Assembly (NCBI GenBank): GCA_900546315.1
Contig: URCP01000001.1
Coordinates: 2,852 to 66,851, forward strand
Source of the DNA: an uncultured Eubacteriales bacterium
GTDB taxonomy: Bacteria > Bacillota > Clostridia > Oscillospirales > CAG-272
DNA length: 64,000 nt
Reading direction: 5' to 3'
Numbering within the stretch: the first letter of the stretch is position 1; each line of letters begins with the position of its first letter. This document shows positions 26,818 through 62,519 of this stretch, in pieces. The notes below the pieces were generated by a model. It searched no databases. It saw nothing but the letters and a program-made list of their open reading frames with translations, and was not told where the DNA came from. Position numbers and translations under genes: made by a program.

Positions 26818-26853
26818 GTTATCATGAGATGGTCAACGAAAAGGAGACAGCAG

Positions 26854-35047: not shown

Positions 35048-35102
35048 TGATCATTCCTCCGCAAAAAGATTTCCGGCGCCGCCGTGAACAGGACGCTGCC
35101 GT

Positions 35103-35149
35103 ATAAAAGAGCGGGGAGGCTCCGCTTTTCAAGCGGTGTTCCTCCCCGC
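35103..35149 (-). terminator. Terminator between the E1 gene and lplA
   Basis: On the minus strand: GCGGGGAGG pairs with CCTCCCCGC, followed by TCTTTTAT. Confidence 0.7.
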
Positions 35150-35159
35150 GGATCATCGA

Positions 35160-37646
35160 TCAGAGTCCTTTTTTGCTCCTGTCAATCTTCTCGACGTCGC
35201 TTACGTTCAGTTTCGCGACATAGCCCGGTATCGGCATCAGCTTCTCGTGAATCACGTCGATGATGCCGTCAGCCTGCGGGAAGAAGTACTTCTCAAGCTC
35301 GTGGCAGGGCGTTATCCAGTTTCTCGAGCCGAACGCGACCGGCGGGGCGTCGAGATAATCAAACGCGAGCTCCGCGATGTCCGCCGCCATGTCCTTCATG
35401 ACCGAGCCTCTCTCGCACGCGTCGCCGACGATGACAATCTTTCCGGTCTTCTTCACCGACTCGATAACCTTCGAATAATCGAACGGAACGATCGAACGGG
35501 CGTCTATGACCTCGGCGGAAATGCCGTACTTCTCCTCGAGCGTCTTTGCCGCCTCGAGAGCTCTGTACAGAACCGCGCCTATTGTCAGGATAGTTACATC
35601 CTTACCCTCACGCTTGACATCCGGCTCTCCGAGCGTCACCTCGTATTCGTCTGTCGGCACGCCGCCCTTGTGGAACTGCTCGCCGATATCATAGATACGC
35701 TGGCTCTCGAAGAACACGACAGGGTCAGTGCCGTTCAGAGCGGCGTTCATGAGACCCTTAGCGTCATACGGAGAGGCGGGGAAGACGACCTTCAGACCCG
35801 GGATATGCGCTGTGAGCGCTGTCCAGTCCTGCGAATGCTGAGCGCCGTACTTTGAGCCGACCGAGACACGGATGACTATCGGCATCTTCAGTATACCGGC
35901 GGACATCGACTGCCACTTCGCGACCTGATTGAATATCTCGTCTCCCGCGCAGCCGATGAAGTCCGCGTACATAAGCTCGACGATAACGCGTCCGCCGCAC
36001 ATCGCGTAGCCGACCGACGAGCCGATTATAGCCGACTCGGATATCGGCGCGTTGAAGAAGCGGTGATACGGAAGCGCCTCGGTAAGCCCGCGGTAAACGG
36101 CGTAAGCGCCGCCCCAGTCGCGGTTGTCCTCGCCATATGCGATAAGCGTCGGATCCTCATAGAACTTATCGATTATAGACTCGAAGAGAGCGTCCCTGAG
36201 ACCGAAGGTCTTCGCCTTCGGAAGGGTCTTGCCGTTTTCGTCGAATGCCCACCTTGCCTTCAGAGCAAGCGACTTCACGCGCGGATTGTCCGCCTTCGGC
36301 ATGAGAACCTCCGGCTCGCGGCCCTCTTCCATCGTTTTTTTGTGGCCGTTCGAATACATGATGCGCGCTATAGCGTCAGGATCCTTCTCAAGATCCATCC
36401 GAGGCGACAGGGTCTCGTCTATCGCGAGGCGGCATATCTTCGTCATGCGGCGGATGATGGTTTCATCTATCGCGTCGAACTCATCAGAGGACGCCACACC
36501 GCCGATTATGAGCTTTTCCTTATAAGCTCTGATCGGGTCCGCCTTTCTCCACTCCTCAAGCTCCTCCTCGGAACGATAAGTGGACGCGTCGGACGCCGAA
36601 TGCCCGCTGAGACGGTAAGTGACAACATCAAGCAGGGCCGGCCCCTCGCCTCTGAGCAGCAGCTCCTTCTTGCGTGTGACCGCGTCAATGACAGCAAACG
36701 GATCGTATCCGTTCACCCTCTCCGCGTGCATCTGTTCTGGATTGAAGCCCGCGCCGAGACGCGCCGCCATGCCAAACGCCATAGTCTCGCCCATAGTCTG
36801 ACCGCCCATGCCATAGAAATTATCGAAAATATTGAAAAGTATCGGAAGTCCCGGATTATTCCCATTATCCGTCTCGCCCCAGAGCTGTCTTATCTGATCC
36901 ATTCCGGACATATTGAACGACTCAAGCACCGGCCCGCGACCGCACGCACCGTCGCCGAAATTCGCGATGACAATGCCCTTCTTCTTATTCGCCCTCTTAT
37001 AGAGCGCCGCGCCGAGCGCCACCGGAGCCGACCCGCCGACAATCGCGTTATTCGGGAATATCCCGAACGGTATGAAAAACGCGTGCATCGACCCGCCAAG
37101 CCCCTCATTGAAGCCGGTAGTCCGCGCGAATATCTCAGCGAGCGCGCCGTAAAGCAGGAAATCTATCGCGAGCTCCTTTATATTGCCCTTGACCTCCTCG
37201 CGCCCCTCGACCACATTCAGTATCCTTCCGCCAAGGAACTCCTTCATGATATCATAAAGCTCAGTGTCGTCCAGCTTATATATCGACGACAATCCCTTCG
37301 CGAGTATCTCACCGTGGCTCCTGTGCGAGCCGAACGTGAAATCGTTTATATCCAGCGAATAAGCTTCGCCGACCGCCGAAGCCTCCTGCCCGACAGACAA
37401 ATGCGCCGGACCCGGGTTCGAATACTCCACCCCGTTATAAACCGACTTCGTCTTTATCTCGCCGAGCATCGTCTCAAACTCACGTATGATACGCATATCA
37501 CGATATATACGCATCATATCGTCCTTCGAATAAAGCGCTTTCTCCTCGTCAAGCGTCTTCGCGTACTGATTCACCGGGATATCGTCGAAATGGATATATC
37601 CGGGCTGAAAGACCTTTTTCGGGTCAATATACTGACTCTTTGGCAT
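35160..37646 (-). CDS. 2-oxoacid dehydrogenase E1 component, fused alpha-beta (TPP-dependent)
   Basis: 828 aa. The N-terminal half carries the TPP motif region (GDGACGRGPVLESFN). The C-terminal half is transketolase-Pyr/C-terminal-like (FNAPISESAIIG...). Confidence 0.85.
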   Translation of the reverse strand: MPKSQYIDPKKVFQPGYIHFDDIPVNQYAKTLDEEKALYSKDDMMRIYRDMRIIREFETMLGEIKTKSVYNGVEYSNPGPAHLSVGQEASAVGEAYSLDINDFTFGSHRSHGEILAKGLSSIYKLDDTELYDIMKEFLGGRILNVVEGREEVKGNIKELAIDFLLYGALAEIFARTTGFNEGLGGSMHAFFIPFGIFPNNAIVGGSAPVALGAALYKRANKKKGIVIANFGDGACGRGPVLESFNMSGMDQIRQLWGETDNGNNPGLPILFNIFDNFYGMGGQTMGETMAFGMAARLGAGFNPEQMHAERVNGYDPFAVIDAVTRKKELLLRGEGPALLDVVTYRLSGHSASDASTYRSEEELEEWRKADPIRAYKEKLIIGGVASSDEFDAIDETIIRRMTKICRLAIDETLSPRMDLEKDPDAIARIMYSNGHKKTMEEGREPEVLMPKADNPRVKSLALKARWAFDENGKTLPKAKTFGLRDALFESIIDKFYEDPTLIAYGEDNRDWGGAYAVYRGLTEALPYHRFFNAPISESAIIGSSVGYAMCGGRVIVELMYADFIGCAGDEIFNQVAKWQSMSAGILKMPIVIRVSVGSKYGAQHSQDWTALTAHIPGLKVVFPASPYDAKGLMNAALNGTDPVVFFESQRIYDIGEQFHKGGVPTDEYEVTLGEPDVKREGKDVTILTIGAVLYRALEAAKTLEEKYGISAEVIDARSIVPFDYSKVIESVKKTGKIVIVGDACERGSVMKDMAADIAELAFDYLDAPPVAFGSRNWITPCHELEKYFFPQADGIIDVIHEKLMPIPGYVAKLNVSDVEKIDRSKKGL

Positions 37647-37673
37647 AACCTTTATCTCCTATATTCATTTGCT

Positions 37674-37721
37674 TGCAGGGAGGGGGAAAGCCCTTCGGGA
37701 AGGGCTTTCCCCCTCCCTGCA
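37674..37721. repeat. 48-nt near-perfect palindrome (22-bp stem) between the E3 and E1 genes
   Basis: TGCAGGGAGGGGGAAAGCCCTT-CGGG-AAGGGCTTTCCCCCTCCCTGCA. There is no flanking U-run on the transcribed (minus) strand. Confidence 0.8.
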
Positions 37722-37768
37722 CCCTCCCCTTTTCCCCAAGCTTCATACATGGGTTATTTAGAGGGATT

Positions 37769-39124
37769 TTATTCGAACATCGCCTCGCGGATAACCTCGC
37801 AGACCGTCGGGTGCGGGAAGACAAAGCGACGAACGTCCTCGACGCGCATCTCACGCTCCACCATCATCGCGGCTCCGTAGATTATCTCCGACGCGTAATT
37901 TCCTATCATATGGACGCCAAGGACACGGTGATGCGCCTTATCGGTGATGATCTTCACAATCCCGTCGCCGCCCTCGTTCTCCGCGACATACCGCCCCGAA
38001 TAACGCAGGGTCAGCGAACGCGTCTCCGCCTCTATCCCCTTCGCCCTCACGCTCTCGTCCGTCTCGCCAACCGACGCGACCTCCGGATTCGTATAAATCA
38101 CGGACGGTATCGACATATAATTCACGGCGTCCTTCTTCCCGAGCATATCATTAACCGCGACCTCTCCCTCGCGGTAAGCCGTATGCGCGAGCATCGACCG
38201 ACCGTTGACGTCGCCCGACGCCCAGACGCCGGGAACGTTCGTGCGCCCCCGCTCATCCGTCACGACAGCCCCGCGCTCAGTGAGCACTCCTATCGACTCA
38301 AGCCCGATACCGGAAGTATTGGGACGCCTCCCCACAGCGCACAACACACAGTCCGCCGGAAGCGATTCCGTCTTCCCGTTGTATTCACAGGTAACCGCGC
38401 CGTCTCCGACAGCTGTCACCTTCGCGCCGAGCAGGAAACCGACGCCCTTCCTCTTGTAGTTTTTAAGTAATATATCCGCTATCTCCCGGTCCGTCGCCCC
38501 GCCGATATGGTCGAGCATCTCTACGACCGTCACCCGCGAACCTATCGAATTGAAGTACGACGCCATCTCGAGCCCGATGACCCCGCCGCCGATAACGACG
38601 AGTCTTTCCGGAACATCGGTCATATCCAGTATCTCACGGTTCGTCTTCGCGAATCCCGAAGCGACCGCCTCTCGTAAACCCGGTATAGGCGGCACCGCCG
38701 CTGACGAACCGGTGCAGATAAGCAGCCTTTTTCCCTCGCAGACCGTGTCGCCGACCCTCACCGTGAAGCCATCACGGCGACCTGTTATCTGACCGTGTCC
38801 GGAGACGACCGTCACACCCGCGCGCTTCATCTTCGCGCCGATACCGCCGACAAGCTGCCTCACGACCCTGTCCTTGCGCGCGACCACCTTCGCGTGGTCA
38901 ATCGCCGCGCCGGAAAAGGTAACGCCGTAGTCTTCAGAATGCTTCGAGTAATCATATATCTTCGCGGAGTAGAGAAGCGTCTTTGTCGGTATGCAGCCCT
39001 CGTTCAGGCAGACTCCGCCGAGCGCCCTCTCTTCTATGACAAGGGTCTCAATGCCGCCCGTCGCCGCTCTCTCAGCCGCGTTGTATCCGGCGGGACCTCC
39101 GCCGAGTATTATCAGTCCGTACAT
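37769..39124 (-). CDS. lpdA: Dihydrolipoyl dehydrogenase (E3)
   Basis: GGGPAGY FAD motif and redox-active disulfide GGVCLNEGCIPTK. Confidence 0.93.
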   Translation of the reverse strand: MYGLIILGGGPAGYNAAERAATGGIETLVIEERALGGVCLNEGCIPTKTLLYSAKIYDYSKHSEDYGVTFSGAAIDHAKVVARKDRVVRQLVGGIGAKMKRAGVTVVSGHGQITGRRDGFTVRVGDTVCEGKRLLICTGSSAAVPPIPGLREAVASGFAKTNREILDMTDVPERLVVIGGGVIGLEMASYFNSIGSRVTVVEMLDHIGGATDREIADILLKNYKRKGVGFLLGAKVTAVGDGAVTCEYNGKTESLPADCVLCAVGRRPNTSGIGLESIGVLTERGAVVTDERGRTNVPGVWASGDVNGRSMLAHTAYREGEVAVNDMLGKKDAVNYMSIPSVIYTNPEVASVGETDESVRAKGIEAETRSLTLRYSGRYVAENEGGDGIVKIITDKAHHRVLGVHMIGNYASEIIYGAAMMVEREMRVEDVRRFVFPHPTVCEVIREAMFE

Positions 39125-39140
39125 ATCAGTCCTCCGTCAG

Positions 39141-40487
39141 TCACTTTGAGAGAAGCAGATCGAAGTCCGCGAGCGCCGCCGCGAGATCTTTAAGGAATCT
39201 CGCCGCCGGAGCCCCGTCGAGCGCCCTGTGGTCAAAGGTCAGCGACAGCCCCATCGCCGGGTATGTCGTCCCGTCCTCACGCGGTCTGTATGTCACGCAG
39301 TTTACTCCGAGTATGCAGACCTGCGGCGGATTTATGACCGGAGTGAAGCTTTCAATCCCGAGCGAGCCGAGATTCGTGACGGTTATCGTCCCGCCGGTCA
39401 GCTTATCGGGGGATATCGAACCGCTCTGCGCCTCTTTTATCAGAGCCTTTGCCTGTCTCGACAGCTCGCAGAGCGACAGCTTCTCAGCCCCGGCGAGCGT
39501 CGGAACCATAAGTCCGCGCTCCGTGTCAACCGCGATGCCGAGATTCACGGTGTCAAACACACGGATGAAATCCTCCATGAAATACGCGTTGCAGTCCTTA
39601 TGCGACAGCAGCGTCTTCGCGCAGGCGAAGAGAACCATATCGTTGAGGGTTATATTCGCGAGCCCCAGCTCCTCTCCGCGCGCCTTGACCCTCGCGCGGT
39701 AAGCGAGTATCGCCGACGCGTCAAACGAGGTGTTCAGAGTAAGCTGCGCCATCGTGGAGAGAGACGCGTGCATCGACTTCGCGATGACCCGGCGTATGTT
39801 CGTGAGCTTCACATCGGTGTACAGAGCCTCCGTTCCCGGAGACTTCATCTCCTGTACCGTTGTCTCAGGCACGGCGCTCTCTGCCGGAACTTCCGGCGCG
39901 GTCGTGGCGATATTCTCCGCTATCACAGTCTCCGTCTCTTCCGGAATATCCCTCTCCCCGGAGAGATATTTCTCAACCCTCTCTGTCGGAACAACATTTC
40001 CGTCATCAAGAATGCGATTCACGTCCCGCTCGATTATCCGCCCCATGGGTCCGGTCGGCGCCGCCTTCGAGAGGTCCGCGCCGGTCTTCAGCGCGAGATT
40101 CCGCGCCCTTGGTGAGATACGCAGGATATCGCCGGTTTCCTGAGCCGTGGCAACAACCGCGATATCCGTCTTTTCGGTCTCCGTTTCATCTGTCTCCGTC
40201 TCGTCCGGGGTTTCCTCACATTCAGGGCAAAAAGGTGAAATGTCCTCACCTTCCTCGCCTATCACGCATACATTCTCGAGGCAGGGAACGTCGTCACCCT
40301 CCTCGGCGAAAATTCCGAGCAGGACGCCGTCGACCGGGCTCTTCTCGTCAAAGCTCGATTTGTCGGTCTCATATGAGAAGAGAATGTCGCCGACCCTGAC
40401 GCGGTCGCCCTCCTTCTTGTGCCACTCGGTTATGACGCAGCTCTCGACGCTCTGCCCCTGCCGCGGCATTATTACAGCGATTGCCAT
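39141..40487 (-). CDS. Dihydrolipoamide acyltransferase (E2)
   Basis: Lipoyl domain with ETDKS, an acidic linker, a subunit-binding domain, and a catalytic domain ending DHRALDGA. Confidence 0.9.
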   Translation of the reverse strand: MAIAVIMPRQGQSVESCVITEWHKKEGDRVRVGDILFSYETDKSSFDEKSPVDGVLLGIFAEEGDDVPCLENVCVIGEEGEDISPFCPECEETPDETETDETETEKTDIAVVATAQETGDILRISPRARNLALKTGADLSKAAPTGPMGRIIERDVNRILDDGNVVPTERVEKYLSGERDIPEETETVIAENIATTAPEVPAESAVPETTVQEMKSPGTEALYTDVKLTNIRRVIAKSMHASLSTMAQLTLNTSFDASAILAYRARVKARGEELGLANITLNDMVLFACAKTLLSHKDCNAYFMEDFIRVFDTVNLGIAVDTERGLMVPTLAGAEKLSLCELSRQAKALIKEAQSGSISPDKLTGGTITVTNLGSLGIESFTPVINPPQVCILGVNCVTYRPREDGTTYPAMGLSLTFDHRALDGAPAARFLKDLAAALADFDLLLSK

Positions 40488-48541: not shown

Positions 48542-49996
48542 TTATTCGTATTTTCCGATGTCTTTTTCGATCTTCGCGATACTCTTGTCCTTAAGCGCCG
48601 CGATCTTCGAGGCGACAGCGGTATCGCCGGTGTTCAGCGTATTTATAAGCGCGGTTTCAATATCGCTTGTCCACCCGAGAATGACATCCGACGCCAGTGT
48701 GCGCGTTCTCGAGATGATACCGAGCATCTCGGCGGAATCGTCGTTTCTCGTGCCCTTCTGCATGAGATACGCGTTGTAGTACGGCTCCATAAGACTTATA
48801 TGGCTGTCATATGCCATTGCGTCAAGAATGGTGGCTGTCCGCGACAGGTCCGACACCGAGGACGGCACGACCATCAGTGTGGTTCCCCAGTTCGCCAGAA
48901 GCGAGATATAATCCTCCTGTGCCTCGTCGTACTTAGGAACCGGAATAACGCCGTAATCGTCCTTCATATCCCTGAGATTCGAGATACAGCCAAGCGTCTC
49001 GGAGCAGATCATCGCCCGTCCGCGCAGAAACGCGTCGAGGTCGGACATTCCGTCAGCCTTCTCAAAGCAGAGCACGCAGCCGTCCGTCGAGGCGAGCGCG
49101 CCCACCTTTTCGTAAATGCCGTACATCTTTTCGCTGTCAGCCCCGAAAACCGGCTTGCCGTCCTCGATCCACGCGAATCTTCCGCCTGAGCCGTAGATGA
49201 ACGCGTCGATCATTCCGAAGTGGGTTCCGAAGCCGTACCGGCAGCTTTCATCCGCTGCTATCGGCAGATAGCTCTCGTCGCCGTTCAGCGTGGCTCCGGC
49301 TTTACCGTATTCGGCAAGGCGGTCGACCGTCCATTTTCCCTGTCTTACAAGGTCATACGGCAGTTCAAGCCCGACATCCGTCATCGTTTTCTCGTTCATG
49401 AACAGAACGACCGTCGCCTCGAACGGGAAAAGGCATATATCGCTCGTCGTGAAATACAGATGCCCCATAATGTCCGCCGACTCGTTCACCATCTGGTCCC
49501 ACCAAGGTTTGTCGAGGTTCAGACCGTCGAGCCCTTTCAGGTCACAGAGGTAGTTGTCCCCGAGAAGCCCGCTCATCGTGTGCGCTGATATCATCGCGGC
49601 GGAATACACGTCCTCACCCGCGGTCACCGTCTTTTTTAGCTCGTTAGCGACATCGTTTATTCCGACCTGCCTGTCGCTTATCACGACGTTGTATCTGTCC
49701 TCTATCCGCGAGTTGCGCTCAAACATCGCGTCGCTCACGAGATCTCCGCTCATCTCTTCAGGGGCGATCATAACGTTCGCCCAGATCTCCGGCTCAATAT
49801 TCAGGAATGTGAACTCGAATCCGCCGTAATCGGCGGTCGGGTAGATGTAGTCCGCGGAGGTCACGCTTTCCGCTTCCGGCGTCGTCTTGTCCGTGTCCGG
49901 AGCGTCAGTCTCCTTGTCTGCGGTACCGCTGCCGCAGCCCGCCGCGAATGAGGAGGCGAGCATGAGAGCCGTTAATGTGATCAGTTCCTTTTTCAT
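48542..49996 (-). CDS. ABC-type extracellular solute-binding lipoprotein (orphan, paralog 2)
   Basis: Lipobox in LMLASSFAAGC-GSG. ~480 aa. Confidence 0.75.
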   Translation of the reverse strand: MKKELITLTALMLASSFAAGCGSGTADKETDAPDTDKTTPEAESVTSADYIYPTADYGGFEFTFLNIEPEIWANVMIAPEEMSGDLVSDAMFERNSRIEDRYNVVISDRQVGINDVANELKKTVTAGEDVYSAAMISAHTMSGLLGDNYLCDLKGLDGLNLDKPWWDQMVNESADIMGHLYFTTSDICLFPFEATVVLFMNEKTMTDVGLELPYDLVRQGKWTVDRLAEYGKAGATLNGDESYLPIAADESCRYGFGTHFGMIDAFIYGSGGRFAWIEDGKPVFGADSEKMYGIYEKVGALASTDGCVLCFEKADGMSDLDAFLRGRAMICSETLGCISNLRDMKDDYGVIPVPKYDEAQEDYISLLANWGTTLMVVPSSVSDLSRTATILDAMAYDSHISLMEPYYNAYLMQKGTRNDDSAEMLGIISRTRTLASDVILGWTSDIETALINTLNTGDTAVASKIAALKDKSIAKIEKDIGKYE

Positions 49997-50148: not shown

Positions 50149-52218
50149 TCAGCCGATTTTAACGTGTCTGTCCGCAAGCGGAATCTTCACGGTGTTCAGC
50201 ATACCGTTCACCGTGACCTTGTGCTTACCGCTCTCGGTCTCAACCGGATACTTCTTCCCGTCGGTGACGACGAAGGCGAACTCGCCGCCCTCATGGAGGT
50301 CATATACGCCGTCGAAGCCGCCGGAGACCGCCATTGGGGAGTTGAACTTGTCGATGAGACCGAGCACAGCGACGCCGTTCTCAACCGGAACTATCGTATA
50401 GAGCCTGAAATCGTCGTGGTCGTTCAGAGTGACATCGAGCGCCTCTCCGTCCTTCAATACCGTCACATCGCCGGAGAAGTGCTCATACACCGCCACCTCG
50501 CGGCAGCCGCAGCCGAGGTCGGCGACCGAAACGGTACCGCTCACCGGCTTGTTCCCGTGATCGAGGTTGAACGCCGCGATGACGCCGCCCTTCGCGTAGG
50601 TATTCTTCACCTTGAAGATCCTGCCGTTCGTCTCCGGGTCGGACACGAGGCAGTCCTTCGTCGGGATCGCCGGGTTCTCCGGGCGGAGGATTCGGCCGTC
50701 ACTGTAGCAGAGCGGCTCGAAGATCTCAGGACGGCTCCTGCCGATCCTATCGCTGACGTAGATCGGTCCGCCGGAGATCGCGCGCAGGACGCTGTTCTTC
50801 TTCGCCTGCTCGTCGTCGGACCACCACATATCCCAGTCGCTCCAGTAGAACATACCCTGAATGAGCGAGTTGTAGCTGCACGCGAGGATATGGCGGATGA
50901 ACCACTCGCGGTTCTCCGGCTGGAAGTCGCCGGAGCAGCGGGAAACCGCGCCGGACGGACGGTTGAACATATTCTCGCTCGCCATGCCCATGCAGTTTAT
51001 GATATCATTGTCGAAATGCGATCCGACCGAGCTCGTGATCGCCCTCTGGATATTTCTCGCCGCCTCGCCGAGCGGGTAGACGTTCTTATAATTGTCCGCG
51101 ATGAAACCCTGATTGTCGATCTTCACGAAGTCGGTCCCACAGTGCTTCAGGAAGTCGTGGAACGCGCTGTAGAACAGGAACGCCTTGTCAGGCTCAAGGC
51201 TCGGCATGAGCCTTCCGTTCGGCGTCTCGATGAGCAGATCGCGGTACTTCTCCGCGAGCTCCGACTCAGGGTCGATGCCAGCCCAGTATCCGCTCGTCGG
51301 GTGCCACATACCGATTTTCAGACCGTACTTCTTCATCTTATCAAGGCAGTCCTTGAGCCCGCCGGGGAATCTCTTCGGGTCAGCCTCGAAGCTGCGTATC
51401 TTCGACGAATGCATGACCGAGAACATACCGGTCTCGCGTGTGAGGTCGTCCGGGATATCGCGGAGCTTGTCGCACTCAGCCCACATATCGTCGATGATCG
51501 CCCATCTGAATGGAATCTTCTTCGCCTTTATCTCCTCGCACTTTTCGAGCAGACCCTCGGTGCTGACGCGTATCTCGAGCGCGTCCCACGAGCACCAGCC
51601 GAGGTATTCGAATATTTCCGGATAGCGGCGTTCTTCTCTGACCGGGCAGCCATTGTCAAGCAGCTTCATCGCGAGCTTCGCGCAGTCGTTCATCAGCGTG
51701 TACGGCTCGTCGCCCTCGCCGTAAACAGCCGCGAGCGTGTCGCAGTCGGAGAGGTCGGAAACGTTCGCGAACAGATAGAGTTCAGCCCCGTTCTCATTGC
51801 CGCGCAGAGCCGCCTTATAGCGCTTGTCGACTATCGGAAGGATGAAGCCGTACTTCCCGTCTGTCTTCTTATAAAGCAGCGCCTGCGTCCTGTTCTGTAT
51901 CTTTGAGAGATCGTCGCCGAACTGCGGTCTGCACCAGTGCGGGCAGCTCTGGAAGTTCGCCATATATCCCTCGATATCGCCGAGCGACGGGATAATGAAG
52001 CTAACTGCCGTGTCAGCGTCAAAGCATCCGCCCTTGACCGACGCCTTCACATACGCCGCGGTCAGCCTGCCGCACTTCTTTTCGGTTATCGCGGAAGAGA
52101 CCGTCGTCTTTCCTTCCTTGAGGGTGAACTTGCCCTTGCAGCGTCCGTCCGCGAGAGAAAGACAGCTCTCGTTTCCGGCAAGACGCGCGGTTGCCTTTGC
52201 GTTTTCAAACAGATTCAT
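50149..52218 (-). CDS. Sip1/raffinose-synthase-like GH36-clan glycoside hydrolase (alpha-galactosidase-like)
   Basis: LGWCSWDALE and AIIDDMW motifs are typical of the raffinose-synthase/Sip1 family. Confidence 0.7.
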   Translation of the reverse strand: MNLFENAKATARLAGNESCLSLADGRCKGKFTLKEGKTTVSSAITEKKCGRLTAAYVKASVKGGCFDADTAVSFIIPSLGDIEGYMANFQSCPHWCRPQFGDDLSKIQNRTQALLYKKTDGKYGFILPIVDKRYKAALRGNENGAELYLFANVSDLSDCDTLAAVYGEGDEPYTLMNDCAKLAMKLLDNGCPVREERRYPEIFEYLGWCSWDALEIRVSTEGLLEKCEEIKAKKIPFRWAIIDDMWAECDKLRDIPDDLTRETGMFSVMHSSKIRSFEADPKRFPGGLKDCLDKMKKYGLKIGMWHPTSGYWAGIDPESELAEKYRDLLIETPNGRLMPSLEPDKAFLFYSAFHDFLKHCGTDFVKIDNQGFIADNYKNVYPLGEAARNIQRAITSSVGSHFDNDIINCMGMASENMFNRPSGAVSRCSGDFQPENREWFIRHILACSYNSLIQGMFYWSDWDMWWSDDEQAKKNSVLRAISGGPIYVSDRIGRSRPEIFEPLCYSDGRILRPENPAIPTKDCLVSDPETNGRIFKVKNTYAKGGVIAAFNLDHGNKPVSGTVSVADLGCGCREVAVYEHFSGDVTVLKDGEALDVTLNDHDDFRLYTIVPVENGVAVLGLIDKFNSPMAVSGGFDGVYDLHEGGEFAFVVTDGKKYPVETESGKHKVTVNGMLNTVKIPLADRHVKIG

Positions 52219-52246: not shown

Positions 52247-53068
52247 TTACCGACTGAGCTTCGCGTTTCTGAACAATGTCAGATCGACCTCGCGGTTCTT
52301 TTTATTCTCAAGGGTGTAGACCCTTCCGACGCCCTCGTACTTCGCGCCGGCGAAGCTGTTGTAGCCGAGGAGCTCGACCGGACTGTCGCCGACGATCTCC
52401 GCTATCGCCGCGAGATTTTCCCTCGTGTCGGTGATGTCGGGTATCAGCGGGACTCGAATCAGGTGCGGTTTGCCGCTCGCCTTCAGCCGCTCAAAATTCG
52501 CGAGGATCGGTGAATTATCGACCCCGCACCACTTTTTGTGCTGCTCCGGGTCGGCGAGCTTTATGTCCATCATCACAAAGTCTGCGTTGTCTATCACGGA
52601 CATATATCTATCCGCCGAGGTGAAGCCGCAGGTTTCCACAGCTCTGTGGATCTTCTTCTCTCCGAGAAGCCCGAGAAGCTCCGACACGAACTCCGCCTGC
52701 ATTGTAGGCTCTCCGCCCGACACCGTAACCCCGCCGCCGGACGACGCGAAGAAATCCGCTTCCCTCGCGAGCTTTTCGGCGAGCTTTCCGGCGTCCCACG
52801 TCTTTCCGATGATCGAGACGAGCCCGTCCGGACAGGCATGTATGCAGCGGTGGAACGGCTGGCACTCGGGATGAGTACACGGCTTCAGGCACCGCCCGCA
52901 GTGCCTGCATCTCGCCGTCCTCACCATTATCTCCGGCTCCGGTGACAGTCCCTCCGGGTTGTGACACCACTTGCAGGAGAGCGGACAGCCCTTCATGAAC
53001 ACCGTTGTGCGCACACCGGGTCCGTCGTGAACCGAAAACTCCTTGATATCAAATATCGTTCCGGTCAT
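52247..53068 (-). CDS. Glycyl-radical enzyme activating protein (radical SAM, with a ferredoxin-like Cys insert)
   Basis: CPLSCKWCHNPE radical-SAM cluster motif plus CRHCGRCLKPC...CIHACP auxiliary cluster motifs. Confidence 0.9.
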   Translation of the reverse strand: MTGTIFDIKEFSVHDGPGVRTTVFMKGCPLSCKWCHNPEGLSPEPEIMVRTARCRHCGRCLKPCTHPECQPFHRCIHACPDGLVSIIGKTWDAGKLAEKLAREADFFASSGGGVTVSGGEPTMQAEFVSELLGLLGEKKIHRAVETCGFTSADRYMSVIDNADFVMMDIKLADPEQHKKWCGVDNSPILANFERLKASGKPHLIRVPLIPDITDTRENLAAIAEIVGDSPVELLGYNSFAGAKYEGVGRVYTLENKKNREVDLTLFRNAKLSR

Positions 53069-53069
53069 A

Positions 53070-55040
53070 TCAGACAGTGTATTCCTGACGCGCTATGACG
53101 TGATCCTGATATTCCTTGTCGAGCTCGACGAAGTACGCGCTCCAGCCCCAGATCCTGACGACAAGGCGCTTGTGATCCTCGGGATGCTTCTGCGCGTCCT
53201 TCATTGTCTCGAGGTTCACGGCGTTCAGCTGGAGCTGATGTCCTCCGCGGTCTATGAAATACTTCACGATCGACGCGACCTTCTCAAGGCTGCCCTCGCC
53301 GCGGAAAACGCTGTTGTGGAACTCGAGCGTGAGCGGTCCACCGTTTATCGCGCGCACAAAATGCTGCTTCGTGAAGGACTTCACGACGGAAACCGGTCCT
53401 GAGACCTTCGCGAACAGGCTCGCCGAGAAGTTCGTGCCGAAAGGCTCTCCGCTGCGGCGGCCGTCCGGGGACGCGCCGATCTCTCTCGCGTGCCAGAGGT
53501 AGAACATAGCGCTTCCGGTTCCCGCGCGCCAAACGCCGCCCTCGCAGTTCTTCTTTCCTTCAAGGCAGTCGGCGAAGGTGTCGAGCAGCTCAACCGAGAT
53601 ATTGTCGACATAATCGTCGTCACAGCCCATCTTCGGCGCCTCGTTTCTGAGCTTGTCAAGAAGCTCCGGAGAGTTCTCAAAGTTCTCGTCCACCGCCTTC
53701 AGCATATCCGCGGCGCTTATGTACTTTTCGTCAAAGACATACTTCTTTATAGCGGCGAGCGAGTCAGCGGCGGTCGCGATTCCTGTTCCGTGCATACCGA
53801 AATTGCGATATTTTATGTCGTCGAGCATCACGCCCATGAACGGCGACGGGACGAACCACAGATCGTGTATGCCGTTCATTATTTCCTCGCACTCCGAGTT
53901 AATCTCCTTCTTCGTGAGCGCCATGACCTCGTCGAAGTCCTTGCAGTCTGTAAAGCCGTTGTGGAGCATCCTGTCCACCGCCTTCGGGTAGGACATCGCG
54001 CCGATATTCACGACGTCGAACGCGCATCCGGGAATGATGAACTCCCAGCAAGCGGCGACGACATAGTTCGCGGCGTCCTCCGGCGCGTATCCCTTGCGCT
54101 TCAGCCCCTCAATGACGACGTCGTCGTTCGAGTACTGCGGGAAACCGAGCCCCGCCTTCGTGAGCTCAGTGCCGAGTATGTACTGCTCCATCGGCGTCTT
54201 CTTCGACACGCGGAGATTTATCTTCGGGTCGATGAGCTTCAGGTCGCGGCTCGCGATCAGGCAGAGCCTAGAGAGCTCGTTGAAGACGTCATTTCCGTTC
54301 TCGTCGATGCCGCCGAGGACCATCGACTGTCCGTTGTCTCCCTGCTGAACGCCGACATAGAGATCCGAGTCCTTGTTGAACGAGATGAAGAAGTCCTTCA
54401 GAAGCTCGAGCGCCGTCTCCTCGGTATAGACGCCCTTGTCCATATCCGCCCTGAAATACGGATACATATACTTGTCAAAGCGTCCGGTGGTGTTGTGATA
54501 GTTGCCCTCGAGCCAGAGCGAGAAATGCAGGATGCGGAACATCTGCAGAGCCTCGCGGAAGCTCGTCGCGCCGTATCTCGGCACTCTCTCGAGCACCTTC
54601 GCGATATCCTCGCGGCCGACCCTCAGCGCCTCCTCGCGGTATCTGTCGGCGAGAGCGATTATATTGTCAATGGCGCGCTTTCCGTACTCGTCCGCGCCCT
54701 TCCTCAGAGCGAGAAGACCCTTCGATATCGCCTTTTCGTAATCCGGCGAGAGGTTCGAGATATATCCGAGCTCGTGGATGAAGTGCTTCGAGCGTATCTC
54801 CTTCCACTCATCCTCAGTGAAGCAGTCCGGGATATTCTTCACCGTGCGGACAAAGCAGATCTTCTCGTCCGGGAGAATGTGCGGCTTCTCTGCCTTCGTG
54901 AGCCTCTCAAAGCGATCCGCCATCCTCTCGACCGGGCTCATCTTTGCCTCGCTGTATATCTTCGCGAGCGGTTCGGTGTATTCCTCGCGGAAAGCGTGAT
55001 GCTTCTTCGCGAGAACATATTCAAGCAGTTCTTGTGACAT
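53070..55040 (-). CDS. Glycyl radical enzyme, unusually short (656 aa), PFL2/dehydratase-like
   Basis: C-terminal glycyl-radical motif LVVRIWGWSAYFVEL and a Cys-x-Glu catalytic-loop candidate VVAACWEFIIPG. The stop lies 2 nt before the activase start. Confidence 0.8.
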   Translation of the reverse strand: MSQELLEYVLAKKHHAFREEYTEPLAKIYSEAKMSPVERMADRFERLTKAEKPHILPDEKICFVRTVKNIPDCFTEDEWKEIRSKHFIHELGYISNLSPDYEKAISKGLLALRKGADEYGKRAIDNIIALADRYREEALRVGREDIAKVLERVPRYGATSFREALQMFRILHFSLWLEGNYHNTTGRFDKYMYPYFRADMDKGVYTEETALELLKDFFISFNKDSDLYVGVQQGDNGQSMVLGGIDENGNDVFNELSRLCLIASRDLKLIDPKINLRVSKKTPMEQYILGTELTKAGLGFPQYSNDDVVIEGLKRKGYAPEDAANYVVAACWEFIIPGCAFDVVNIGAMSYPKAVDRMLHNGFTDCKDFDEVMALTKKEINSECEEIMNGIHDLWFVPSPFMGVMLDDIKYRNFGMHGTGIATAADSLAAIKKYVFDEKYISAADMLKAVDENFENSPELLDKLRNEAPKMGCDDDYVDNISVELLDTFADCLEGKKNCEGGVWRAGTGSAMFYLWHAREIGASPDGRRSGEPFGTNFSASLFAKVSGPVSVVKSFTKQHFVRAINGGPLTLEFHNSVFRGEGSLEKVASIVKYFIDRGGHQLQLNAVNLETMKDAQKHPEDHKRLVVRIWGWSAYFVELDKEYQDHVIARQEYTV

Positions 55041-55096
55041 ATAATCAAGTCCTTTCCTTGGGATAAATCCGTATGGTATTCCGAGCTTACAATTAT

Positions 55097-55124
55097 ATTA
55101 TAACAGAGTTTGTCCGCTTGTCAA
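55097..55124 (-). promoter_or_regulatory. Promoter of the GRE-activase-GH36 operon
   Basis: On the minus strand: TTGACA, 16-nt spacer, TATAAT. Confidence 0.75.
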
Positions 55125-55269: not shown

Positions 55270-55336
55270 AGATATAGACGCGGTCTGTCCGCGCCCTTAC
55301 ATTAAAAAATCAATTTTTCACAAAGGAGATTTACAT

Positions 55337-57103
55337 ATGAACAAACCGATCATAGGTATCCGCCCCATCATCGACGGACGCCGCAGAGGCATCCGCGAGA
55401 GCCTTGAAGACCAGACCATGAACATGGCGAAGGCGGCGAAGGAACTCATCGAGTCAAAGCTCTTCTACCCGGACGGCACCCACGTCGAGTGCGTCATCGC
55501 CGACACAACGATCGGCGGCGGGGCGGAGGCTGCTGCCTGCGCCGAGAAATTCTCGAAGCTCAACGTCTGCGCGACCCTCTCGGTCACTCCCTGCTGGTGC
55601 TACGGCAGCGAGACGATGGACCTCGATCCCCTGACCACCAAGGCTGTCTGGGGCTTCAACGGAACCGAGCGCCCCGGCGCCGTATATCTCGCGGCTGTCA
55701 TGGCGGCTCACGCGCAGAGAGGTCTCCCGGCGTTCGCCATCTACGGTCACGACGTTCAGGACATGAACGACACCACCATCCCGGCTGACGTGGAGGAGAA
55801 GATCCTGCGTTTCGCGCGCTGTGCAATCGCTGTCGGAATGATGCGCGGCAAGGCGTACTGCGGACTCGGAGCGGTCGCGATGGGTATCGCGGGCTCATTT
55901 GAGGATCCGGACTTCTTACAGAAGTATCTCGGTATCCGCGCGGAGTGGGTTGACATGGTCGAAATCCTCAGAAGGATAGACCTTGGCATCTACGATCACG
56001 CCGAGTACGAGAAGGAACTCGCGTGGATCAAGAAGAACTGCAAGAAGGGACTCGAGGTCAACATCCCCGAACTTCAGAACAACGCGGAACAGGACGAGAA
56101 GGAATGGGAATTCATCGCGAAGATGACTATCATCGTCCGCGACATAATGCTTGGAAACCCTGTCCTGGCGGACATGGGATATGTCGAGGAGTCGAACGGC
56201 AGAAACGCCATCTTCGGCGGCTTCCAGGGTCAGCGCCAGTGGACCGACTACAAGCCGAACGCTGACTTCACCGAGGCTATTCTCAACACGACCTTTGACT
56301 GGAACGGCAAGCGTCCTCCGTTCATTCTCGCTACCGAGAACGACGGACTCAACGGACTCGCGATGCTGCTTCTGAATCTTGTCACGAACCGTCCGGCTAT
56401 CTTCTCTGACGTGCGCACATACTGGTCACCCGACGCTGTTAAGAGAGTGGCGGACTATGAAGTGACCGGCAAAGCGGCGAACGGCTTCATGCACCTTATA
56501 AACTCCGGCGCTTCGGCGCTCGACGGAAACGGCGCTTCGAAGGACGAGAACGGCGAGTCCGTCATGAAGGAATGGTGGAACGTCACCGACGCCGATATGC
56601 AGGCAATGCTTGAGGCAACCAAGTGGGCTCCAGCAAACAAAGGCTACTTCAGAGGCGGCGGATTCTCAAGCCAGTATGTCTCCAAGGGCGAAATGCCCGT
56701 GACCATGGTGAGAGTCAACCTTGTTGACAAGCTCGGACCGGTCATTCAGATTGCCGAGGGTTACACCGTTGAGCTTCCGGAAAAGGTTAACCACGCTCTT
56801 CTCGACCGCACCGACCCGACCTGGCCGTCCATCTGGTTCGCACCGTCGCTCACCGGCGAAGGCGCGTTCACGGATGTATACAGCGTAATGGCAAACTGGG
56901 GCGCAAACCACGGCGCGTCCGTATACGGACACGTCGGCGCGGACATCATCACACTGGCGTCGATGCTCAGAATTCCGGTTTCGATGCACAACGTCCCGGC
57001 AGACAAGATCTACCGCCCGCACGCGTGGTCCGCTTTCGGCACCACCAACACCGAAGACGCTGACTACAGAGCCTGCGCGGCTTACGGTCCGTTATACAAA
57101 TAA
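55337..57103 (+). CDS. fucI: L-fucose isomerase family protein
   Basis: 588 aa. N-terminal sequence [30 protein letters not shown]... and ...[12 protein letters not shown] are recognised as FucI-like. The ATG at 55337 follows AAGGAG. Confidence 0.8.
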
Positions 57104-57164: not shown

Positions 57165-58604
57165 TCAGTTCGCTTTGTAGACGTCTGTTATCAGCTTCTG
57201 GACGTTGTCCGCCACCTTATTCTTCACCTTCGCGTAGTAGGTCGGGAGGGATTCGCCGGATGTGATCACCGAGATTATGCTGAAGTCCGCCGCCTCGTCG
57301 TAGAAGGACGCGCTGTCATTGATTATCGGTATCATCTGCTCCGACTCGGTGTCGCGCGCTATCTTGACCGTCAGCGCAACGTCGAAATACGCCGGCACAA
57401 CCGTATTGTAGGACACTGCGGACATTACCTCGAGCACCGCTCCGGTGAGCTCCGGTCTCGTGTTCGTCACCGGGATATAGCTGAGCCCCGCGCAGTTTCC
57501 GACGCGGACGTTGTAGCCTTCCTGCGCCTCGTCAAACTTCGGGTAAGGAACAAAGCCGAAATCGTCCTTCATATCACGCATATTCCGGATATCGCCGAGA
57601 CTCGAGTGATCAAACATCAGAGTACCGTTCTTGAACGCCGTGTCGAAGGTTCCGTAAGTCGCCGTCTCATACGCCGCGCCGTCCATCGCGAAAAGCTCGT
57701 TCATCTTTTCGACAACCGCGATGTTGCGCTCGGTCTCTATCGATATGACCGGCATATTGTCCTTGTCCTTCGTTATGACGTCTCCGCCGAGAGCCATGTA
57801 GAGCGACGGGACGCTCTCCCAGAGCCAGCCCCAATAGCCGAACTGGTCGACATTCGGGTCAATGATCGTGTCACCATTAAGATCGCGCGTTGCGCTCGCG
57901 ACCATTTCGACAAATCTGTCATATGTCCACTTCCCGTCAAGCACAAGCTGATAGGGATAATCATACCCCGCCTCATTGACAAGACGCTTGTTGAATGCGA
58001 GGATATGCGACGCTCTCAGTATCTCGAGGTTGTACATTCCGGTCATCGCGTATATCTTGTTGCCGTAATTAATGTCGCGTATACAGTTCGCATACCAGTA
58101 CGGCTTCGAAAAGTCTACATTCGGAAGCGTATTCCAGTCAATGAAGCACCCCTCGGAGATAAGCCCCGGCATACCGGAATGCTGAACGTGGATGAAGAGA
58201 TCATTCGAGGTATCGCCTGACATGACGAACGAACGTATCTGCTGCGTCGCGGCGCCCTGCGAGCCTCCGTCCGTAGCGAATCCGCCTTCGGTGAATTTCA
58301 GACTGATTCCGAGCCGCTCCTCCACAGCGCGGTTGCGCTCCCATATTGCGTCGTCAACATTGTCACCCGTCTCTTCCTCAACAAACATCGTTTTGACCGG
58401 ATACGCGAGATAAATATTGAATTCCTCGCCGTCAAAACGTATGTCCCCGAGATCGTCTGTGACCGTTTTTTCAGTCTCCTCCACGGTCGTCGACTCCTCG
58501 GTATTTCCTGAAGTATCATCCTTCTCCGTGCCTGCGGAAGAACCGCAGGACACCGCGGACACAAGCATCAGAAGGGCGAGGACAAACGAAATCTTTCTGT
58601 TCAT
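57165..58604 (-). CDS. ABC-type extracellular solute-binding lipoprotein (orphan, paralog 3)
   Basis: Lipobox in LLMLVSAVSC-GSS. ~480 aa. Confidence 0.75.
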   Translation of the reverse strand: MNRKISFVLALLMLVSAVSCGSSAGTEKDDTSGNTEESTTVEETEKTVTDDLGDIRFDGEEFNIYLAYPVKTMFVEEETGDNVDDAIWERNRAVEERLGISLKFTEGGFATDGGSQGAATQQIRSFVMSGDTSNDLFIHVQHSGMPGLISEGCFIDWNTLPNVDFSKPYWYANCIRDINYGNKIYAMTGMYNLEILRASHILAFNKRLVNEAGYDYPYQLVLDGKWTYDRFVEMVASATRDLNGDTIIDPNVDQFGYWGWLWESVPSLYMALGGDVITKDKDNMPVISIETERNIAVVEKMNELFAMDGAAYETATYGTFDTAFKNGTLMFDHSSLGDIRNMRDMKDDFGFVPYPKFDEAQEGYNVRVGNCAGLSYIPVTNTRPELTGAVLEVMSAVSYNTVVPAYFDVALTVKIARDTESEQMIPIINDSASFYDEAADFSIISVITSGESLPTYYAKVKNKVADNVQKLITDVYKAN

Positions 58605-61448: not shown

Positions 61449-62519
61449 GTGCGTAACAAATTCATTAATTTCATCCTGACCGCTCTGCTTGCCGTGTCGG
61501 TCGCGACTCTGCCGTCCTGCTCGTCGCTCGCGGTCGGCGCCGAGGATGTGTCCGGTCAGGTGACGGCGGCGGTTATGCCGCAGGACGTGGGCGGTCTGCT
61601 CGGCGCCCTCGTCGCCGAAAGATCAGGCTCAACATCCGCCGATGATGATACATCTGCTCCGGAGGAAACAACCGGTGAGTCCGCGGATGATTCTGTCGCC
61701 GCTGACGACACGGTCACCACGGATAACGACACAGCCGCGGACAGCACAACGTCCGATGACGAACCAACAGCCGACGAGACAACCGGTGAGGCTGAGACAA
61801 CGCCGTCGGAAACCGATGACACGACTGGAACTCAGCCGGAAACCACCGCCGAGGAACCTGCCCCGAAGACAAAGCAGCCATATAAGTCCGGCGACAAGGT
61901 CGTTTACCTGACCTTCGACGACGGCCCGCACAAGAAAAATACCGAGCGGATACTGAAAATCCTCGACGACTACGGTGTCAAGGCGACATTCTTCGTCATC
62001 GGAAACCGTGTCTCCGTCTATCCGGATCAGCTGAAGGCAGTGCGCGACGCCGGTCACGCTATAGGGTGCCACTCGTATGATCATGTCTACAAGACTCTCA
62101 CGACCCCGGACGGCGTGAAGACCGAGATCGCCGACTGGGAATCCGCCGCGAAGAAGGCGCTCGGCGAAGTTCCTTCCGAAAAGCTCTTCCGCTTTCCCGG
62201 CGGCTCGCCGACGAAGGACACCGCGGGCTGCAAGGCGGCTGTCGCGGAACTCGGGTACACCGGCTACGACTGGAACTGCCTCGACAATGACTGTCTGATA
62301 CGCAAGTGTCCGAAAGATACAGATGTCGAAGAATGGATGAAGCAGTCCTTCATCTCAACCTACAAATACGGCTCATCACTCAAGAACGCGCCGCTCATCG
62401 TCCTCGCGCACGAAACGTACGACGAGACGGTCGACATACTCGGATGGATGATAGAGTATCTGCAAAACGAAGGCTATACCTTCGGCACGCTCGACACGCT
62501 TGAGTCGTGGTATTACTGA
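61449..62519 (+). CDS. Polysaccharide deacetylase (NodB-homology) lipoprotein with a T/D/E-rich linker
   Basis: Lipobox LPSC. NodB motifs TFDDGP and HSYDH. GTG start after GGAGG. Confidence 0.85.
   Translation: MRNKFINFILTALLAVSVATLPSCSSLAVGAEDVSGQVTAAVMPQDVGGLLGALVAERSGSTSADDDTSAPEETTGESADDSVAADDTVTTDNDTAADSTTSDDEPTADETTGEAETTPSETDDTTGTQPETTAEEPAPKTKQPYKSGDKVVYLTFDDGPHKKNTERILKILDDYGVKATFFVIGNRVSVYPDQLKAVRDAGHAIGCHSYDHVYKTLTTPDGVKTEIADWESAAKKALGEVPSEKLFRFPGGSPTKDTAGCKAAVAELGYTGYDWNCLDNDCLIRKCPKDTDVEEWMKQSFISTYKYGSSLKNAPLIVLAHETYDETVDILGWMIEYLQNEGYTFGTLDTLESWYY

Follow-up and report, generated by a model that had tools for sequence, protein, structure and literature searches.

The DNA analysed here, a stretch of 64,000 nucleotides (nt) of contig URCP01000001.1 from an uncultured Eubacteriales bacterium (hereafter the window), contains at positions 53070-55040 of the minus strand, stop codon included, a gene encoding a compact glycyl radical enzyme (GRE) of 656 amino acids (aa), hereafter called the query. 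The open reading frame (ORF) is the maximal one in its frame. Its product contains the Pfam domains PFL-like (E 8.7e-86) and Gly_radical (E 2.7e-18), E-values that place both matches far beyond chance, and its AlphaFold2 (AF2) model (pLDDT 83.7, pTM 0.86) was matched by Foldseek to about 20 different GREs with a probability of 1.00 and a query-normalised TM-score (TMq) of about 0.8. As set out below, we are confident that this is a functional GRE of a new clade. This compact clade is an uncharacterised and architecturally reduced variant of the GREs with a Cys-x-Glu (CXE) motif, with an altered catalytic constellation.

The gene is preceded by the Shine-Dalgarno-like sequence AGGAAAGG (55051-55058, minus strand), read 9-10 nt 5' of the start codon, and by a predicted sigma-70-type promoter, TTGACA-16 nt-TATAAT with a TG extension (55097-55124, minus strand), which agrees with the consensus at 12 of 12 positions and is located about 55 nt upstream of the ATG. 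From this promoter the order of genes in the window is GRE, activase, a GH36-like glycosidase and, possibly still in the operon, a lipoprotein-type solute-binding protein.

Both catalytic motifs claimed in an earlier reading of this DNA, made from the letters and translations without database searches (the sequence-only reading), were found in place. The Cys loop Ala329-Ala-Cys331-Trp-Glu333 (54042-54056, minus strand), the AACWE loop with the thiyl Cys and the CXE Glu, aligns with Cys433-Val-Glu435 of glycerol dehydratase (GDH) and, in residues C331-W332-E333, with C434-V-E436 of HypD (trans-4-hydroxy-L-proline dehydratase). The C-terminal glycyl radical motif Arg629-Ile-Trp-Gly632-Trp-Ser-Ala-Tyr-Phe637 (53130-53156, minus strand), the fingerprint RIWGWSAYF at residues 629-637, aligns in HMMER with RVAG763YSAQF of GDH. 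Across 40 aligned homologues neither motif varies, nor do Cys331, Glu333 and Gly632 within them. The query has a complete Gly/Cys/Glu triad, and the loss of a functional Gly/Cys pair, which would have spoken against the enzyme, was not encountered.

The adjoining gene (52247-53068, minus strand) encodes a GRE-activating radical S-adenosylmethionine (SAM) enzyme of 273 aa, which scores 281.5 bits against TIGR02494 (cutoff 174). The dedicated activase of the sequence-only reading is thereby borne out, at a spacing of 1 nt and not of 2, the activase ATG being found 1 nt past the GRE stop codon (TGA T ATG). An activase adjoins the GRE in 70 of 82 loci of the close relatives of the query (the query family). 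In these 70 activases the three Cys of the radical SAM motif Cys28-x3-Cys32-x2-Cys35 (52964-52987, minus strand) are invariant, as are seven Cys and His66 of a ferredoxin-like insert, C54xxC57xxC60xxxC64xH66xxC69x5C75xxxC79P (52832-52909, minus strand). For the auxiliary ferredoxin-like clusters proposed earlier there is a Cys-rich insert, in shortened form, and its residue pattern points to a complete auxiliary cluster plus a second one of unusual kind, possibly with His as a ligand. The insert is wholly missing from two activases (L098 and L127, 251-261 aa) of Bacteroidales from a sister subclade described below.

Clade signature, compact length and relatives

The surroundings of the catalytic residues were compared in a MAFFT alignment of 59 GREs, namely the query, 28 clade members and 30 canonical representatives. 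Asn96 (codon at 54753-54755, minus strand) stands at the position of the eliminase His (GDH His164, HypD His160, His166 of 1,2-propanediol dehydratase (PD)), so that the residue by which the C-O dehydratases GDH, PD and HypD are recognised is absent from the query. The segment S-N96-L-S-P-D-Y replaces the canonical G-H-x-x-x-(D/N)-Y, and Asn96 does not vary within the query family and is kept across the clade. That the canonical His is GDH His164 was confirmed by its spacing of 112-117 residues to the GHS motif in GDH-like representatives. In GDH this His has been proposed as the proton donor to the leaving hydroxyl (PMC13450708), and in HypD His160 is located 2.5 Å from the CXE Glu, the H160Q variant being inactive (PMC7077986). 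Since the partner His of the CXE Glu is replaced by Asn here, the acid/base chemistry of the query must, as far as the alignment can tell, differ from that of the known dehydratases. The likeness to the dehydratase/lyase type that had been pointed out from the sequence thus holds at the level of the CXE motif but does not extend to this His.

Two further segments are altered. The canonical ESNGHS reads EGN-Y181-H182-N183 in the query, by which GDH Ser282 and HypD Asp278 would correspond to Asn183, and the equivalent of GDH His281 is retained as His182. Between barrel strands beta2 and beta3 the query has the loop Gly234-Asp-Asn-Gly-Gln238 (54327-54341, minus strand), and the segment V-Q-Q-G234-D-N-G-Q238 occupies the place of the cap helix and substrate-binding element, where GDH has Tyr339 and HypD has Ser334, Asp339 and Phe340. 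This beta2-beta3 segment is five residues shorter than the canonical one and is modelled without a helix (residues 227-236, pLDDT below 50 in AF2); a cap helix between beta2 and beta3 has been called universal in GREs (PMC13450708). The equivalent of GDH Asp447 differs between alignments, being either Asn345 or Asp342. Polar residues (Asn, Asp, Gln, His, Thr, Ser) stand at the predicted positions of the pocket, which has no Arg pair of the kind found in the sulfonate lyases.

We define the clade by five features, all of which the query has: Asn at the GDH His164 position, the GD(N/T)GQ loop, C-W-E and R-x-W-G-(W/F)-S in the places where canonical GREs have C-[VIL]-E and RVAGYS, and a deletion of about 45 residues. 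The motif counts separate the clade well. CWE was present in 120 of 120 query-family proteins, 119 of 119 of a sister set and 3 of 39 canonical representatives; for GD[NTS]GQ the corresponding figures were 119/120, 119/119 and 0/39, and for R[VIL]WG[WF] 120/120, 119/119 and 1/39.

The small size of the query is a property of the whole clade. Its nearest 120 database proteins (68-98% identity) all have 645-673 aa. A scan of one genome per species gave 171 relatives, the best 80 of which (62-86% identical) are full length or clipped only at contig ends; the hosts are gut and rumen Oscillospiraceae, Acutalibacteraceae, Lachnospiraceae and other Clostridia. In an exhaustive HMMER search against 1.8 billion representatives, full-length relatives of 650-705 aa persisted down to about 33% identity, followed by a group of 709-745 aa, and the ordinary GREs of 760-810 aa surfaced only under about 290 bits. 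The size of 750-850 aa that the sequence-only reading gave for characterised members is consistent with the solved structures matched here (chains of 776-897 aa), and its estimate of 100-200 lacking residues agrees with the 125-190 or so that we found missing. These were, however, lost in about a dozen scattered internal deletions and not by terminal truncation. The largest, of about 45 residues, precedes Asn96 directly, removes the canonical '...EYWKGKS...' segment and is common to the whole wider clade. A mis-called start or a truncation was considered as the cause of the shortness and rejected: the ORF is maximal, the homologues are equally long, the N-terminal helices are kept and align, and the deletions are internal.

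Neither catalytic residue is present in two full-length members of the compact clade, P0128 (657 aa) and P0168 (681 aa). In the place of AACWEF their Cys loops have AAGSCF or SSRGEP, and their Gly motifs have become CVRDWRALL or RLWSSGVPF. These proteins may be paralogues without catalytic activity or may come from pseudogenes; they show no obvious likeness to the aminoacyl radical enzymes, in which the Cys is retained.

No NCBIfam equivalog cutoff for a GRE was reached by the query when its model scores were compared with the cutoffs. The best score was obtained with the PFL2-3/glycerol dehydratase subfamily model TIGR01774 (303 bits, cutoff 678), followed by HypD (NF043068, 294/1100), sulfopropanediol dehydratase (275/1000), the pyruvate/ketoacid formate-lyase model NF007437 (252/1109), CutC (TIGR04394, 227/1050) and pyruvate formate-lyase (PFL; TIGR01255, 72/994). 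Identity to canonical representatives is 28-32%, a distance no smaller than that between the canonical classes themselves. In Foldseek the query fits GDH, PD, HypD, PflD, CutC, HplG and an Archaeoglobus GRE almost equally well (TMq 0.78-0.82, identity 20-26%), the C-S lyases IseG, IslA and HpsG less well (TMq 0.71-0.76), and all the matched structures are at least 130 residues longer. The opinion that the protein could not be assigned to any characterised class, and might represent an uncharacterised clade, is therefore upheld; tight clustering with a characterised GRE was not seen, and the homologues share length, deletions and signature motifs. Neither a solved structure nor a curated model exists for the compact clade. 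A review of June 2026 covering all characterised GRE classes contains nothing that resembles it (PMC13450708), and our searches of the GRE literature turned up neither a short GRE clade nor a GRE whose substrates are free sugars.

Among the named systems, GDH of Clostridium butyricum (DhaB1, PDB 1R8W/1R9D) and PD of Roseburia inulinivorans (PDB 5I2A/5I2G) are the top matches in sequence and fold. GDH is the best solved structure by sequence (E 3e-78 with the single sequence, 2e-95 with a family profile), in an alignment that begins only at about residue 110-114 of the query. The TMq values are 0.82 and 0.81 for GDH and PD, respectively, with 24-26% identity by structure alignment, and the two enzymes have in common with the query the ten-stranded barrel, a C-terminal domain with the glycyl radical, a Cys loop of CXE type and an activase from one and the same subfamily. 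Their chains exceed that of the query by about 130-190 residues, however, and, going from GDH to the query, His164 appears as Asn96, Ser282 as Asn183 and the Tyr339 loop as GDNGQ, with CVE changed to CWE and RVAGYS to RIWGWS. HypD (PDB 6VXC/6VXE; TMq 0.81), the second-best NCBIfam match, resembles the query in its CXE loop and in having a substrate-binding element between beta2 and beta3, but its essential His160 and its Asp278 are both Asn in the query, and the GDNGQ loop takes the place of Ser334..Asp339-Phe340.

YbiW and PflD (PDB 8ID7, 8ID0, 8YJO) share the CXE motif with the query (TMq 0.80-0.81), but they are longer (765-826 aa) and only 20-23% identical. They are the only characterised GREs that act on sugar rings, converting 1,5-anhydroglucitol-6-phosphate and 1,5-anhydromannitol-6-phosphate to 1-deoxyfructose-6-phosphate, with the CXE Glu on the C2 hydroxyl and a ketyl-driven C-O cleavage that opens the ring (PMC13450708). 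PflB shares with the query the fold of the superfamily and the concept of the glycyl radical cofactor. The Cys-Cys pair of PflB is absent from the query, and the structural and sequence relationship is the weakest among the full-length GREs.

GREs of gut microbes catalyse reactions relevant to host health, such as the formation of trimethylamine from choline, of H2S from isethionate, and of p-cresol and skatole, and to our knowledge each newly assigned GRE clade has revealed new anaerobic chemistry. The compact clade is large, is found in prominent gut and rumen taxa and is uniformly mis-annotated as PFL. For enzyme discovery it represents a good and cheap target. Its architecture could be the smallest PFL-type GRE scaffold and would help to define the minimal GRE core, and the changes in its catalytic residues imply that its mechanism is a variant of that of the eliminases.

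Gene neighbourhoods of the clade

Neighbourhoods were counted in some 160 loci of the clade, in which ORFs were called by an ATG-only, longest-ORF rule. The query family, which comprises at least 171 species-level genomes, contributed 82 loci, reduced to 55 lineages by dereplication at 90% identity. A metagenome scan, in which the sister group exceeded 500 loci, contributed 80 further loci of the sister subclade, with 44 dereplicated lineages having enough flanking sequence. Several representative proteins were encoded on contigs too short to reveal a neighbourhood.

In the window, the third gene of the operon (50149-52218, minus strand) begins 28 nt past the activase and encodes a GH36-like glycosidase of 689 aa (Raffinose_syn/Sip1, Pfam PF05691, E 6e-69), whose best solved relative is the plant alkaline alpha-galactosidase/RS6 (E 5e-59). 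It is followed by the last co-directional gene (48542-49996, minus strand), an ORF with a lipoprotein-like N-terminus, and no terminator was predicted between the two. The label of solute-binding protein for this ORF comes from reading the translation, there being no Pfam or NCBIfam match.

In the opposite direction, at 55334-57103 on the plus strand, there is a gene encoding L-fucose isomerase, FucI (NCBIfam equivalog NF008220, 1016 bits against a cutoff of 775). A general functional partnership of FucI with the GRE was considered and rejected, as no more than 5 of 55 lineages, all closely related, have the gene beside the GRE; FucI is probably not part of the GRE system.

Across the 55 lineages of the query family an activase was found in 50, an AraC or LacI regulator in 23, the GH36-like gene in 19, GDSL/SGNH esterases in 8 and FucI in 5. 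The most frequent Pfam families among 189 operon-linked genes are Raffinose_syn (18), GDSL lipase-like (16) and LacI (8), and no microcompartment shell, aldehyde dehydrogenase or alcohol dehydrogenase gene recurs in these operons.

Some loci of the query family have a composition of their own. In six of them (L013-L016, L018 and L020) two activase-like genes follow the GRE, in tandem or, in L016, one gene apart, and upstream there are a giant LRR_5 surface protein (2,300-2,600 aa) and GDSL esterases. The anaerobic ribonucleotide reductase NrdD, with an ATP-cone, and a thioredoxin-reductase-like gene come next in L014-L016 and L020, which places two different GRE systems side by side; no NrdD is visible in the sequence of L013 and L018. 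In four lineages (L023, L037, L058 and L059) a DUF4867 protein (about 216 aa, Pfam E 5e-69, cluster c25) is encoded between or beside GRE and activase, perhaps as an accessory protein or an enzyme of a downstream step.

The sister subclade consists of proteins of about 686-692 aa which are 34-49% (mean about 43%) identical to the query and have the same signature. In Alistipes and other Bacteroidales the gene order is activase, GRE, Sugar_tr, Aldose_epim, with gaps of 2-10 nt. A sulfatase-rich genome of 4.1 Mb has the order GH51, Aldose_epim, Sugar_tr, activase, GRE, HAD phosphatase, with GH43 also in the module, and in Biomaibacter acetigenes (CP033169) activase and GRE come after a sugar ABC system of ribose type. 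Other members are accompanied by a ROK regulator in one case and by an iron-dependent alcohol dehydrogenase (Fe-ADH) with NagB- and NagA-like genes in another. The recurrent clusters comprise a XylE-like sugar porter (TIGR00879, 343 bits against 238), a GalM-type aldose 1-epimerase, i.e. mutarotase (NF008277, 322 against 240), GH127, which is the beta-L-arabinofuranosidase family, GH51 ArfA (773 against 625 bits) and regulators of the LacI and GntR types. Of the 44 lineages 40 have an activase, 29 any sugar transporter, 18 the XylE-like symporter, 12 the mutarotase, 5 GH127 and 4 GH51.

A more distant member of 733 aa (P0155; L173, 72-15191) is surrounded by LacI, four Gfo/Idh/MocA oxidoreductases and an IolE/IolI-like AP_endonuc_2 TIM barrel. 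The same locus holds two DegT-type sugar aminotransferases, a zinc-dependent alcohol dehydrogenase and a neutral ceramidase-like gene, with no activase within 5.5 kb downstream, and looks like an amino-sugar or aminocyclitol catabolic island.

Proposed substrate and mechanism

The reading that we favour, with a probability of about one half, is that the query is a CXE-type enzyme which cleaves a C-O bond by radical chemistry in a free, unphosphorylated aldose. The broader proposition, that the substrate is derived from carbohydrate, is probably correct and agrees with the sugars, polyols and deoxy-sugars that the sequence-only reading had suggested for screening. It is unlikely that any single specific reaction named below is the right one.

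The argument is drawn from the gene context. Genes for a mutarotase and for proton symporters or ABC importers are kept in the clade, while no kinase or phosphotransferase system (PTS) gene is conserved in its neighbourhoods, which argues for an unphosphorylated substrate and, together with the mutarotase, for a reducing sugar that is free and is used as a single anomer. In this the clade differs from YbiW and PflD, its nearest functional analogy as sugar-acting enzymes, whose substrates are phosphorylated and have no anomeric hydroxyl. GH127 and GH51 in the sister group and the clan-D GH36-like enzyme here point to galacto-configured aldoses; L-arabinopyranose and D-galactopyranose are identical in configuration at C1-C4.

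The following mechanism could be envisaged. Under anoxia, the radical SAM activase would take a hydrogen atom from Gly632, and the glycyl radical would then generate a thiyl radical on Cys331. The thiyl radical would remove the hydrogen atom of a substrate carbinol carbon, with Glu333 accepting the proton of the hydroxyl so that a ketyl radical forms; a hydrogen bond between the CXE Glu and a hydroxyl of the substrate is common to all eliminases and isomerases characterised so far (PMC13450708). The ketyl radical would expel the beta C-O leaving group, and the product radical would regain a hydrogen atom from Cys331. The substrate would most likely be a free unphosphorylated monosaccharide in a single anomeric pyranose form, presumably a galacto-configured aldose such as D-galactose or L-arabinose, which in the window may be freed by the co-transcribed GH36-like glycosidase. 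Of the possible outcomes, the likeliest would be dehydration across C1(OH)-C2(OH) to a 2-deoxy-aldonolactone or a ring C-O cleavage as in YbiW and PflD. The anomeric C1-H/C1-OH and the C2-OH form a vicinal diol, on which a diol-dehydratase-like reaction would give the 2-deoxy-aldonolactone and would explain the dependence on the anomer; ring opening would be the main alternative.

Several points weigh against this proposal. The gene neighbourhood is the sole source from which the substrate is deduced, and in the query family, where the activase is the only near-universal partner, neither a mutarotase nor a dedicated transporter is conserved. The link to the GH36-like gene reaches about a third of the lineages. 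No downstream enzyme (lactonase, dehydrogenase or aldolase) recurs among the operon-linked genes of either subclade. The sugar link is not universal, as the Lentisphaerae member P0337 (L089/L090, 8246-11660) has no adjoining activase or sugar genes. Moreover, the His that is essential in HypD is Asn in the query, so that the altered acid/base chemistry would be a requirement; the active-site correspondences come from HMMER and MAFFT sequence alignment, and the GDNGQ loop is modelled at low confidence. The coding sequence of P0337 has 4-nt overlaps with an upstream FtsJ-like methyltransferase and with a downstream gene of the Sua5/YciO/YrdC family, a housekeeping-looking context.

The alternative that survives best, although we consider it unlikely, is that the substrate is derived from carbohydrate without being a free aldose: an unphosphorylated 1,5-anhydro-alditol or other cyclic ether sugar, a cyclitol (inositol), or an aglycone freed by the GH36-like enzyme, such as glycerol from galactosylglycerol or myo-inositol from galactinol. 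YbiW and PflD, the sole known sugar-acting GREs, open anhydro-alditol rings, the 733-aa member stands amid Gfo/Idh/MocA and AP_endonuc_2 genes typical of inositol-type catabolism, and AP_endonuc_2 genes are found near the GRE in three further loci (L001, L039 and L089). The closest solved relative of the GH36-like protein is a plant enzyme of the raffinose family, whose substrates carry sucrose or inositol aglycones, and the neighbouring GDSL esterases could deacylate galactolipids. However, the mutarotase of the sister modules needs a free anomeric centre, which anhydro-alditols, cyclitols and glycerol do not have, and no reductase forming anhydro-alditols is conserved. For glycerol in particular, the replacement of GDH His164 and Ser282 by Asn96 and Asn183 is unfavourable.

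The position of FucI, transcribed divergently beside the GRE promoter, could suggest a divergent 1,2-propanediol/glycerol dehydratase serving L-fucose fermentation, in which FucI opens the way to lactaldehyde and 1,2-propanediol and this diol is then dehydrated by the GRE. In its favour, GDH and PD rank first among the matches in sequence and in fold, and an Fe-ADH gene adjoins one clade member. We regard this as improbable, since FucI is confined to five closely related lineages and genes for a fuculokinase, an aldolase, an aldehyde dehydrogenase, a 1,3-propanediol dehydrogenase or microcompartment shells were not found to recur; diol-pathway genes are likewise missing from the vicinity. Moreover, the diol residues His164 and Ser282 are both Asn in the alignment, the TIGR01774 score is less than half of its cutoff (303 against 678 bits), and the fold scores of GDH and PD are no better than those of HypD, CutC and PflD.

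Equally improbable in our view is a substrate outside carbohydrate metabolism (an amino acid derivative, an amine or a sulfonate), with the sugar genes being coincidental in gut genomes rich in glycoside hydrolases. The contexts of the query family are indeed heterogeneous, many loci consisting of GRE and activase amid unrelated genes, and the genomes of gut Clostridia and Bacteroidales are dense in carbohydrate genes. On the other hand, the set of transporter, mutarotase, GRE and activase is kept while its gene order is rearranged, apparently across phyla as judged from the neighbouring genes. The regulators directly upstream are of sugar type (AraC, LacI, GntR-PBP or ROK), no amino-acid, sulfonate or amine genes recur, and the predicted pocket is polar and has no counterpart of the Arg pair of sulfonate lyases.

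The remaining explanation, a pyruvate formate-lyase or 2-ketoacid formate-lyase, has in its favour the uniform public names of the homologues ('pyruvate formate-lyase' or 'formate C-acetyltransferase') and the name of the Pfam domain, PFL-like, but it is effectively refuted by the single Cys followed by Trp-Glu in place of the adjacent Cys-Cys pair of PFL, by the 72 bits against 994 in TIGR01255 and by the rank of the PFL structures as the weakest full-length GRE matches (E 1e-16). Judged by these sequence features, with no Cys-Cys pair and with PFL as the most distant full-length relative, the annotation of the clade as pyruvate formate-lyase is wrong.

Returning to the free aldose as the favoured substrate, we tentatively suggest that the clade may comprise the first GREs that act directly on free unphosphorylated aldoses, providing a radical, ATP-independent first step of monosaccharide catabolism by dehydration at the anomeric C1-OH/C2-OH or by ring opening. 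If so, this would be a new route for sugars of the galactose/arabinose type, widespread in gut Oscillospiraceae, Alistipes, Bacteroidaceae and other anaerobes, and it would involve a new acid/base arrangement, with Asn for the eliminase His and the GDNGQ loop for the cap-helix element. Even the sugar link by itself, if true, would add a radical entry step to monosaccharide metabolism and would explain the orphan four-gene 'transporter-mutarotase-GRE-activase' modules of Bacteroidales.

Other features of the window

The lipoprotein gene at the end of the operon is one of three paralogues of about 480 aa, all on the minus strand (48542-49996, 57165-58604 and 27862-29310), which resemble the solute-binding proteins of sugar ABC systems. 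None of the three has a Pfam or NCBIfam match at E<0.01, and no ABC permease genes adjoin any of them. The one at 27862-29310 adjoins a regulator of the AraC family at 26824-27780.

A complete 2-oxoacid dehydrogenase complex, with E1 as a fusion protein of 828 aa, E3 and lipoylated E2, is encoded at 34013-40487 (minus strand) along with a lipoate-protein ligase. The complex is possibly the acetoin or pyruvate dehydrogenase of an anaerobe, and it occurs in one genome alongside oxygen-sensitive glycyl radical chemistry. At 61449-62519 (plus strand) there is a gene for a secreted protein in which a low-complexity linker of about 110 residues, rich in Thr, Asp, Glu and Ala, is followed by a NodB-type polysaccharide deacetylase-like domain, recognised in the translation by the motif TFDDGP.

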